Part shown: positions 12,001-15,000 of the stretch, piece after piece
Layout of the letters: every line of letters begins with the position of its first letter
How positions within the stretch are numbered: position 1 is the stretch's first letter
Assembly (NCBI RefSeq): GCF_013315695.1
Contig: NZ_CP054353.1
DNA: 64,000 bases
DNA from: Escherichia coli
Lineage (GTDB): Bacteria > Pseudomonadota > Gammaproteobacteria > Enterobacterales > Enterobacteriaceae
Strand: one strand, 5' to 3'
Made by a program: the position numbers

Positions 12001-15000
12001 TTACCCTGCAGTTCAACCTCGAACACCTGAAGCGGGTGAATCAAATTGAGGCCAGGTTGAATCAACCAGTTTCCGTCGCTAATTTTCATTGCCGTTCCTT
12101 AGTTCTGCACTTCTTGAGAGGTGAATTGTTGCTGGCAACGGCGTTTGCCCTGGGCCAGCTGTTCCATAACGGTTTTCAGATTGTGCGTCGTGAGTGAGTA
12201 GTAGCGTTTAGCGATAATCGCGCTCAGCAAGTAACAGATCGCCGGAACAATCGTGAATAGCGCGATAATGATGCTAATTGTGGCGCTGTTCTGCGCTTTT
12301 TCTGCCGCATCATATCCGCCATAAGCCAGCATCCAGCCGATAAGGGCACCACCGAAGGCCAACCCCAGTTTGAGCACAAACAGCGTGCCAGCAAAACTGA
12401 TCCCGGTCAGGCGTTTACCATTACACCACTCGCCGTAGTCGACGGTATCGGACATCATTACCCACTGGATAGGTGTCACCAGTTGATGCAACACACCAAT
12501 CACGAAGATGAAGACAAACATGGTGATGCTGGCCTGCATAGGAACAAAGAACATCGCGAGGCTAATCACTGCCAGCAGGGCGTTCGTCCACCAGAAGATA
12601 GTGACTTTACATTTCCAGTCGGTCAGCGGTTTTGCCAGTGCGGAGCCAATCAGGTTACCCACGCAATAAGTGGTGAGAAAAGCGACAAATACTTCCGGCG
12701 TGCCCAAAATCCATGTGACGTAATACATCATCGCCCCACCGCGTACGCACACCGCCAGAATATTGAAAATGGTTAGTAAACCGACAATACGCCACTGGTC
12801 GTTTTGCCAGATATCACGTAAATCTTCCCTCATAGACGTCGTTGTAGGTGGTGCTTCAACGCGTTCTTTAGTGGTGAAGAAACAAAATGCCAGCATCATG
12901 AATGCCACCACGGAAAGGACCGCGATACCGCCCTGGAAACCGAGTGGTTTATTATCACCACCAATTAAATTAACCAGCGGCATCATCAGAACAGTAGAGA
13001 GCATGCCTCCCGCGGTCGCCAGCACAAAACGCCAGGATTGCAGCGAGATACGCTGAGTCGGGTCATTGGTGATTACACCACCCAATGCGCAGTAAGGGAT
13101 ATTGACGATGGTATAAAGTAAGGTAAGTAGGGTGTAAGTAATTGCTGCATAGATCATTTTGCCGTTCATACTGAGATCTGGCGTGCTATAGGCCAGTACA
13201 CAGACGATCCCGAATGGCAGTGCGCCAAACAGTACCCACGGACGAAATTTACCCCAGCGAGAGCGCGTTCGATCGGCCAACAACCCCATGCAAGGATCGG
13301 AAATCGCATCCAGTGCACGAGCGACCAAAAACATGGTTCCGACAAATCCGGCAGGAATGCCAAAAATATCGGTATAAAAGAACATCATATATAACATTAC
13401 GTTATCGAAAATAATGTGGCTGGCGGCGTCTCCCATGCCATAACCAATTTTCTCTTTAACGGACAACACTTCACTCTTCATCTGCTTTTCCTTGATGCTA
13501 TAGGGGTGCTGAGACCGATAACGCATTTTGTAAACCATCCCTGCGAGAGCGAATATTCCGATATCTGGTTATTAATTTATGATTCTTGTTTTATGTGATC
13601 GTGGTAGCGTAAATTACGCTCATATATCATTGTAAAGTATGGGTTTTATATGAACTATAATGTTTTCGTGATAATACGCTGCATGTATTAGGCGGAAAAA
13701 ACTGATCTGGGGGATGTAGAAACTCAAGGAAGTAGCTATAATGCGCCCCGCCTCCATGTAGCAATCGAGGCGCGGAAGATCGTCGTCTCCGGTGAGGCGG
13801 CTGGACTTCAAATCCAGTTGGGGCCGCCAGCGGTCCCGGGCAGGTTCGACTCCTGTGATCTTCCGCCAAAATTCCTCTTCATACGTTCTCCAACCCCTCG
13901 TAATACTGTCAATCCAGATATTTTCTACTGCTCAATATTAAATCGGCTTCAGGAATACCTGATCAAAGGTTTTATGATGGACGATGAGCGGCTGAAGAAT
14001 CCGCCAGTCGGTTCTTCTGTCCTCGAACGCATCCGCGATATTCGCGCCAGTATGCGCCGTGTTTATTTGCAGGTGATTTGCCCCCTACTGACTCTCAGCC
14101 AACTGTATCGCCATTAAGGTGAAGATGTTGTTTTACACGCTTCTGCACACCCTTTTTATACGACTATTCTATTCCTTTAACCGCTGGCGAAAAAAACTGA
14201 CCTATAAACTTCACCAATAATCAGACTGCCATCAAGATTAATTTTTTCATTTAATATATCAAATAAACTTGTTTTATTTTTACTATCAAAAATAGCTCAT
14301 TGCCTTACTATAATTAATATATAAATTCGGTGATTAACTCTTAACATGCCTTTGCTAATAATCTCAATTGCTGGCCCTATAATATTGCGCTAGCATTGCT
14401 TTCTGGTTGTATCAGCGATACTCAAAAATTCTTAATACAATACTCATTCGACTGGTACTTATTTGTAACTCAGTTATATTTTGTCGCCCGGTGATTCAGA
14501 AGAATGCAAAAAACGGCTACTACTCCATCAAAAATACTTGATCTCACTGCCGCGGCATTTTTACTTGTCGCCTTTCTGACTGGTATTGCGGGCGCTCTCC
14601 AGACTCCCACCCTAAGTATATTCCTCGCAGATGAACTGAAAGCCCGTCCTATAATGGTAGGTTTTTTCTTCACCGGTAGCGCTATTATGGGAATTCTGGT
14701 CAGTCAATTTCTGGCAAGGCACTCCGATAAACAAGGCGACCGTAAATTACTGATCCTGCTATGTTGCTTATTTGGAGTGCTGGCCTGCACGCTTTTTGCG
14801 TGGAATCGCAACTACTTCATTCTCCTCTCAACGGGCGTACTTCTGAGTAGTTTTGCTTCCACTGCAAACCCGCAAATGTTCGCCCTCGCCCGTGAACACG
14901 CCGACAGAACAGGCCGTGAGACGGTCATGTTCAGTACATTTTTACGTGCTCAGATCTCGCTTGCCTGGGTTATCGGGCCACCGCTCGCTTATGAACTGGC

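Follow-up and report, generated by a model that had tools for sequence, protein, structure and literature searches.

The subject of this analysis is the sequence directly 3' of selC, the tRNA-Sec gene, in a 64,000-nt stretch of Escherichia coli DNA (the window, to which all plain coordinates refer). The local gene order is yicI, yicJ, selC, a relic of the gene rhuM, setC, yicL, nlpA and yicS, followed by an accessory island, and the region is 100% identical to that of E. coli MS 21-1 (NZ_CP146670.1, reverse strand). Our reading, to which we give a probability of roughly 0.85, is that 13869-14101 is a dead remnant, formed in place, of a selC-proximal rhuM gene, which would have become fixed before most E. 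coli lineages diverged and would now be drifting. The features on which the argument turns are these:

13774-13868, plus strand: selC, the tRNA-Sec (UCA) gene (ARAGORN; Rfam RF01852, 83.8 bits).
About 13839-13882: attachment site of selC islands, made of the last ~21-30 nt of selC and ~11-14 nt beyond it (seen as a repeat in island-bearing genomes).
13869-13945, plus strand: what is left of the 5' leader of rhuM, covering the first ~80 of its ~123 bp (75% identity to relatives across 80 nt).
13946-14101, plus strand: internal rhuM fragment, the pseudogene yicT (PF13310, tblastn, DNA alignment).
14102-14200, no strand: first part of an AT-rich spacer, variable, with no homology found.
14201-14503, plus strand: setC-proximal part of the spacer, conserved, the presumed promoter and 5' region of setC.
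14504-15688, plus strand: setC, encoding a sugar efflux transporter (open reading frame and annotation), within the strain-variable segment.
15735-15798, plus strand: right edge of the variable segment, where homology between three alleles resumes; yicL starts at 15799.

The preliminary description of this DNA, made from the sequence alone, had placed a RhuM-like fragment directly 3' of tRNA-Sec, had recommended a tblastn search with RhuM proteins and had taken the lack of any significant match as disproof. A mechanically called open reading frame (ORF), 13818-14117, contains LQEYLIKGFMMDDERLKNPPVGSSVLERIRDIRASMRRVYLQV and matches the Pfam family PF13310 (Virulence_RhuM) with an E value of 1.6e-12 and 47.7 bits (gathering cut-off 33.7), across profile positions 50-99 of 252. 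With the intact 345-aa RhuM of E. coli PU-1 (L003 4148-5185) as query, the recommended tblastn search returned the fragment at E 2e-21, and the identification therefore stands. Its placement in the protein does not: the fragment had been assigned to the C-terminal region of RhuM, but DNA alignment with the PU-1 gene (L003 4507-4696) shows 13946-14101 to be internal and N-proximal, corresponding to residues L121-P183 of 345. The alignment reveals three internal deletions, of 24, 8 and 2 bp, and a 75-bp core with 95-98% DNA identity to intact E. coli rhuM. Homology to rhuM stops abruptly at 14101, past codon 183, and from there to setC the DNA is AT-rich. A weak tblastn extension to residues 104-120 was rejected, as this stretch proves at the DNA level to be leader and not coding sequence.

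The fragment does not amount to a complete PF13310 domain (about 250 profile positions), nor to an intact ORF that begins with a start codon, and a search of NCBIfam with it gave no match. The TTG from which the ORF 13818-14117 starts falls inside the tRNA gene, and no credible start lies outside it; because of this start the ORF is not a gene. The fragment derives from the RhuM family but is not a functional member of it.

It is also already known, as the ordinary named pseudogene yicT. In K-12 MG1655, yicT (b4653) sits between selC and setC (selC 3836222-3836316, yicT 3836425-3836556, setC 3836953-3838137), the gene order being as in the window. The two copies have the same locus, position, left junction and three internal deletions, and their relics are 96.2% identical; they differ in that the K-12 copy has an in-frame TAA and a 1-bp insertion and the window copy neither, a trivial strain variation. 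The RefSeq annotation in the listed genomes reads 'rhuM: RhuM family protein', incomplete, with the N- and C-terminus missing, and the PGAP annotation places a rhuM pseudogene at 13947-14075. Since K-12 and five other strains have the same relic junctions, and since relic and spacer are present in 3618 of 5426 complete E. coli genomes (presence being defined as at least 80% of 13880-14480), the relic would go back to a single old event. The first ~18 nt past tRNA-Sec (13869-13886) carry 5 differences between the window (AAAATTCCTCTTCATACG) and K-12 (AAAATGCCTCTCCTGACG), far above the level in the flanks; these may be the scar of past island integration and excision across the attachment site.

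The sequence that separates the fragment from selC is itself informative. The 77 bp at 13869-13945 are homologous to the sequence that, in relatives, lies between selC (or its 3'-end repeat) and the rhuM start codon, the match being 75% over 80 nt. The relatives concerned are E. whittamii (L079) and two E. coli, namely the species representative in GTDB (L038) and the divergent strain CUPF09 (L125). The full leader of these three genomes measures ~123 bp and runs up to ATGTCAGAC (MSDK...), where rhuM starts. The leader of the window ends ...AATCGGCTT and is followed by CAGGAATAC at Q122, with a GC content of 36.4% in the leader and 51.9% in the relic. That selC still carries the native leader of rhuM shows the relic to have arisen in place. 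The four nucleotides GCTT are common to the end of the leader and to rhuM codons 120-121, and a deletion of ~0.4 kb at this microhomology is therefore indicated, with loss of codons 1-120 and of the leader sequence before them.

A history in four steps would account for this arrangement. An element carrying rhuM at its selC-proximal end would first have inserted itself at the 3' end of tRNA-Sec, as comparison with other genomes suggests. The ~0.4-kb deletion at GCTT would then have joined the leader to codon 121, at the cost of the start codon and residues 1-120, and the smaller 24-, 8- and 2-bp deletions would have come later; both stages can be read from the alignment. The sequence past codon 183, together with the right end of the element and the selC 3'-end repeat, would have given way to ~400 bp of AT-rich DNA and setC, a replacement that is visible in the comparison and whose order and mechanism are our reconstruction. 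The relic would finally have drifted, gaining stops and frameshifts strain by strain, as is seen among present-day strains.

The evidence for drift comes from two strain comparisons. An in-frame TAA interrupts the relic in 3 of 7 strains and a 1-bp frameshift in 3 of 7, the K-12-like strains having lesions of both kinds. Among five genomes in which selC is unoccupied, 37 of 332 columns are variable in the leader, the relic and the first ~100 bp of the spacer, against 27 of 395 third-codon positions in setC. It is because of these stops and frameshifts, and of this level of variability, that we consider the relic to be drifting neutrally. The first part of the spacer (14102-14200) has 11 variable columns out of 99 in the same five genomes. 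Its setC-proximal part (14201-14503) has 11 out of 303, significantly fewer than the 37 of 332 upstream (Fisher p = 4e-4); these ~300 bp, which evolve more slowly, most likely carry the setC promoter or regulatory region.

A comparison of the selC-setC interval across E. coli genomes had also been recommended, and the survey of 5426 genomes provides it. selC is directly contiguous with the relic in 2489 genomes; by difference, relic and spacer are present but not contiguous with selC in ~1129 more. In sampled genomes of this second group the match begins at tRNA position 66-75, which corresponds to the selC 3'-end repeat at the distal edge of the island inserted there. In strain 361, for instance, DUF932, antirestriction, YeeU/CbtA and DUF4942 genes lead up to the repeat, after which come the rhuM relic, setC and yicL. 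Since island-bearing genomes have the relic past the selC 3'-end repeat, it behaves as a fixed chromosomal flank just outside the attachment site, and newer islands would insert between selC and the relic. A further 1104 genomes, LF82, JJ1887 and Nissle 1917 among them, have an alternative segment made of a second rhuM relic and a gene for a 122-aa hypothetical protein, without setC; 844 of these 1104 possess an intact rhuM 52 bp from selC. Neither segment was found in the remaining ~704 genomes (by difference).

Beside the allele of the window there are two others. The intact rhuM islet of the 844 genomes (PU-1, ExPEC XM, LF82 and JJ1887 among them) has a gene of the same family as the relic, with the same leader start and a core that is 95-98% identical. 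It differs from the window in its full 345-aa gene, in the sequence CATCAAATG that follows ~110 bp on together with a degenerate selC 3'-end repeat (CGACTCCTGTGAT and CGCCAAAATGCCTCT, separated by a gap), in the second relic that comes next, and in the absence of setC. This second relic (L003 5389-5602) is a frameshifted remnant of residues 166-245 with ~70% DNA identity to intact rhuM. This older relic lies behind the intact gene and is not annotated in PU-1. Pfam and PADLOC searches with the 122-aa hypothetical protein of this B2-type allele gave no match. The third allele, found in CUPF09 and E. whittamii, consists of the leader and rhuM codons 1 to ~21 (fewer in E. whittamii) and continues, without setC, with a fliB-like flagellin lysine-N-methylase gene on the opposite strand. 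The three Escherichia alleles are mutually exclusive: leader and residues 121-183 with setC, residues 166-245 with the hypothetical gene, and leader and residues 1-21 with the fliB-like gene.

These alleles bear on the origin of the spacer and of setC. Neither the 1104 B2-type genomes nor CUPF09 have setC, the interval between selC and yicL being filled there by other DNA, and homology between the three alleles resumes only ~65 bp (CUPF09) or ~27 bp (B2 type) before the yicL ATG. On these alignments the variable unit is the whole 1.9 kb from selC to 27-65 bp before yicL, with spacer and setC included. Because two other alleles replace this entire segment in other Escherichia lineages, setC would be either surviving cargo or a later replacement. 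The composition of the segment is uneven. The very AT-rich stretch noted earlier ahead of setC is confirmed, with a GC content of 32.6% for 14102-14503, 32.1% for 14121-14503 and 28-34% in the setC-proximal part, compared with 48.7% in the whole window; setC itself has 46.1%, compared with 49% in yicJ and yicL.

It had been proposed that selC was once occupied by an island since lost or displaced. The rhuM origin and the formation of the relic in place support the first part of this proposal, but 'island lost' is too simple a description, since the whole selC-yicL segment varies. Several properties expected of a tRNA-associated island are present, namely a position directly 3' of an attachment-site tRNA gene, an atypical base composition and variable presence among strains; a distal repeat of the tRNA 3' end and an integrase gene or remnant are lacking in the window.

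Some of these results weigh against the reading of the locus given above. The best candidate for a second selC 3'-end repeat downstream in the window scores 13-15, which is noise, compared with 24 for the true repeat of PU-1, and no integrase gene or remnant occurs among the ORFs and annotations between selC and yicL. Because the window holds neither, both the island origin and the site-specific integration are deduced from other genomes. The spacer, compared with the B2-type relic region, with island right ends and with a plasmid collection, matches nothing outside E. coli chromosomes. The assignment of a setC promoter depends on lower variability in only five genomes, and a scan for promoters and terminators found sites no more often than in shuffled sequence.

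The alignment of the spacer with the region behind the B2-type intact rhuM, which contains the second relic, scored 40 (shuffled sequences: mean 33.4, sd 4.4, maximum 50). Alignments with the conserved tails that close the rhuM islets of PU-1, Pseudescherichia vulneris and Morganella morganii on the right stayed within the null range, so that a resemblance to islet right ends suggested by eye was discarded. A distant-mode search of the plasmid collection retrieved only three multi-megabase E. coli records that are chromosome-like and filed as plasmids. Rfam at a permissive threshold detected nothing but tRNA-Sec in 13400-14700, and a search for direct and inverted repeats in 13700-14700 returned one trivial 12-nt pair only.

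Two accounts of how relic, spacer and setC came together survive this evidence, and we regard them as about equally likely, each having a substantial chance that nevertheless falls somewhat short of even. According to the first, the whole 1.9 kb is one decayed islet with setC as its surviving cargo, so that the old island was not lost. The segment is indeed replaced as a unit, by the second rhuM relic and the 122-aa hypothetical gene in 1104 genomes and by a rhuM stub and the fliB-like methylase gene in CUPF09 and E. whittamii, with a right junction that is nearly the same in all alleles (27-65 bp before yicL). The GC contents of setC (46.1%) and of the spacer (32.6%) both lie below the 49% of yicJ and yicL. 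No SetC match occurs near selC in other species either: species-representative genomes were scanned with the last 24 nt of tRNA-Sec, which gave at least 120 loci with few Escherichia or Salmonella among them (the pattern lay in a full tRNA-Sec in 113 of those listed), and none of the listed loci has such a match. However, no genome was found in which this spacer and setC come after an intact rhuM (coverage values pass from 100% straight to 12%), the right junction shows no attachment-site repeat, and setC departs only slightly in GC content. Homologous replacement through the flanks could, moreover, also give rise to three alleles that share a junction.

According to the second account, relic and setC have separate histories: rhuM was already resident when an unrelated illegitimate event, either an insertion or a replacement, brought in spacer and setC and thereby eliminated the 3' two-thirds of the gene. 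The abrupt end of rhuM homology at 14101 and the fall in GC content at that point (51.9% in the relic, 32.6% in the spacer) would fit such an event, as would the spacer's lack of homology to the rhuM 3' region or to island right ends; the absence of any genome with an intact rhuM before this spacer speaks for it too. Against it, there is no intermediate genome with a longer rhuM remnant and no setC, and the flanks of spacer and setC show neither insertion-sequence ends nor inverted repeats nor target duplications.

The view of the relic as dead DNA has a competitor in which the fragment was co-opted, for example to encode a small protein or small RNA or to regulate selC or setC. The relic has been kept in two thirds of E. 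coli genomes and has received a gene name in K-12, although retention alone is weak evidence. At the protein level co-option is already refuted by the stops and frameshifts found in several strains, to which the lack of a start codon outside the tRNA gene can be added; with a variability at least as high as that of synonymous-type sites and with no match in Rfam or NCBIfam, co-option in any form is highly improbable. A RhuM similarity due to chance or to low-complexity sequence can be dismissed outright, given a score above the curated Pfam cut-off, the tblastn E value of 2e-21 and the near-identical 75-bp core.

A decayed selC-proximal rhuM has parallels in known systems. In Salmonella pathogenicity island 3 (SPI-3), rhuM occupies the selC-proximal ('left-hand') end, and its deletion or fragmentation is frequent among serovars (PMC5966662; PMC3680342). 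The SPI-3 gene and the relic belong to the same protein family (PF13310) and share the selC-proximal position; SPI-3 differs in that many serovars have an intact rhuM there, together with sugR, misL, marT and mgtCB, the comparison being made with SPI-3 as described in the literature. In the identical MS 21-1 region no SPI-3 gene other than the rhuM remnant is annotated, and the window locus is not a member of that island. The one Salmonella locus among those listed (subsp. arizonae, L096) has no rhuM within 3.2 kb of selC.

Intact E. coli RhuM belongs to PF13310 throughout its length (E 4.5e-118) and matches the PADLOC candidate defence family PDC-S05 (E 2.8e-173); a sequence search of the PDB with the intact protein found no solved relative. 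RhuM-like domains have been described in restriction-modification neighbourhoods and proposed to be toxins (Anantharaman et al. 2013, PMC3710099). The likeness to PDC-S05 and to such toxins applies to the intact relatives only: because the relic keeps ~63 of 345 residues, it cannot have an activity of this kind.

The association of rhuM with selC extends well beyond E. coli. Among 108 listed loci with at least 600 bp downstream of selC, at least 16 have a RhuM match that starts within 1 kb 3' of selC on the tRNA strand, and about half of these matches are fragments. Among the matches listed, they belong to Morganella, Providencia, Yersinia, Hafnia, Erwinia, Pantoea, Enterobacter, Pseudescherichia, Kosakonia, Xenorhabdus and Photorhabdus, with one further locus in a metagenome bin labelled Bacillota. 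At least six more listed loci have a RhuM match at 1.6-6 kb from selC. The earlier statement that rhuM-type genes sit at the selC-proximal edge of islands is thus borne out by these species, by the 844 E. coli genomes and by the left end of SPI-3. Decay has also occurred independently elsewhere, as in Klebsiella sp. L014, where residues 113-137 of a rhuM relic are fused to its C-terminal end.

Some of these loci are small, self-contained islets. In P. vulneris (L016; 0-1423 bp past selC) an intact rhuM is followed by a selC 3'-end repeat. In M. morganii (L091; 0-3506 bp past selC) a 3.5-kb unit comprises an apparent integrase remnant, rhuM and two ORFs; on reading of the sequences, integrase remnants precede rhuM both there and in E. 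albertii (L007). The right end of the M. morganii unit is the same as that of E. coli PU-1 (L003 4096-5327), with ~100 bp alignable and ending in CATCAAATG. The same motif closes a larger selC island of CbtA/YeeU type in CUPF09 (L125, ~6971) and a small islet with an integrase remnant in Phytobacter. A match to this motif with 3 substitutions in Serratia grimesii (L074) was rejected as spurious, as it lies among ordinary metabolic genes.

Tandem accretion at tRNA attachment sites, as well as integrase-less elements that can be mobilised in cis, are known among integrative elements. The selC locus resembles such systems in having newer islands between selC and the relic with the older remnant in the distal position, and in harbouring short, repeat-bounded elements devoid of an integrase. 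It differs in that the distal repeat of the window is gone, and mobilisation would here be hypothetical. The integrase-less islets that carry rhuM in PU-1, P. vulneris and M. morganii may have arisen by deletion or may be mobilisable in trans. More speculatively, and in our opinion with rather unfavourable odds, selC could be a hotspot in Enterobacterales for small rhuM islets that have the same right end (CATCAAATG) and repeat as larger islands, are moved in trans by the integrases of the latter and carry a candidate anti-phage or toxin gene; the three Escherichia relic alleles would then testify that a defence gene was captured at this site, and decayed, more than once, the window fragment being one such fossil.

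Other features of the window were recorded alongside the selC locus. The accessory cargo that had been placed 4 kb further on is real and is the known eip/eilA/air island, but it is sited between yicS and nepI and not at the tRNA gene. It spans ~18100-36800 (~18.7 kb) and encodes a SycD/LcrH-type chaperone (18349-18846), a SipB/YopB-like translocator (19094-20875), a hypothetical protein, an IpaD/SipD-like tip protein, the HilA-family regulator eilA and the 11.4-kb inverse autotransporter gene air/eaeX. Co-location of air and eilA at the selC locus has been reported (PMC8148099). Between yicH and yicI (~2533-9476) lies a seven-gene sugar cluster with a BglG-type antiterminator, phosphotransferase system (PTS) components IIA, IIB and IIC, two aldolases, a ROK-family protein and a lyxose/mannose isomerase; in CUPF09 selC comes directly after yicH, without the sugar cluster or yicI and yicJ. 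Genes for a RelE/ParE-family toxin and a helix-turn-helix (HTH) antitoxin at ~38469-39084, between nepI and yicN, are absent from that position in K-12 MG1655. Two hypothetical genes (~160 and ~481 aa) with no annotated function are found between ilvN and uhpA (~48139-50344), and a gene for a ClbS/DfsB-family four-helix-bundle protein, followed by an ISL3-family ISEc53 transposase gene, between tisB and ivbL (~53946-55703).

The fragment is of little importance in itself, being a named pseudogene that the NCBI pipeline already labels rhuM. Its use is as a landmark for the chromosomal side of the selC attachment site: because it marks that side, sequence found between selC and the relic can be recognised as a later insertion. 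The three relic alleles likewise offer a simple lineage marker at the selC locus. The recurrence of rhuM within 1 kb of selC may bear on how tRNA hotspots gain and lose candidate defence genes, a question that concerns the intact relatives of the relic rather than the window itself.

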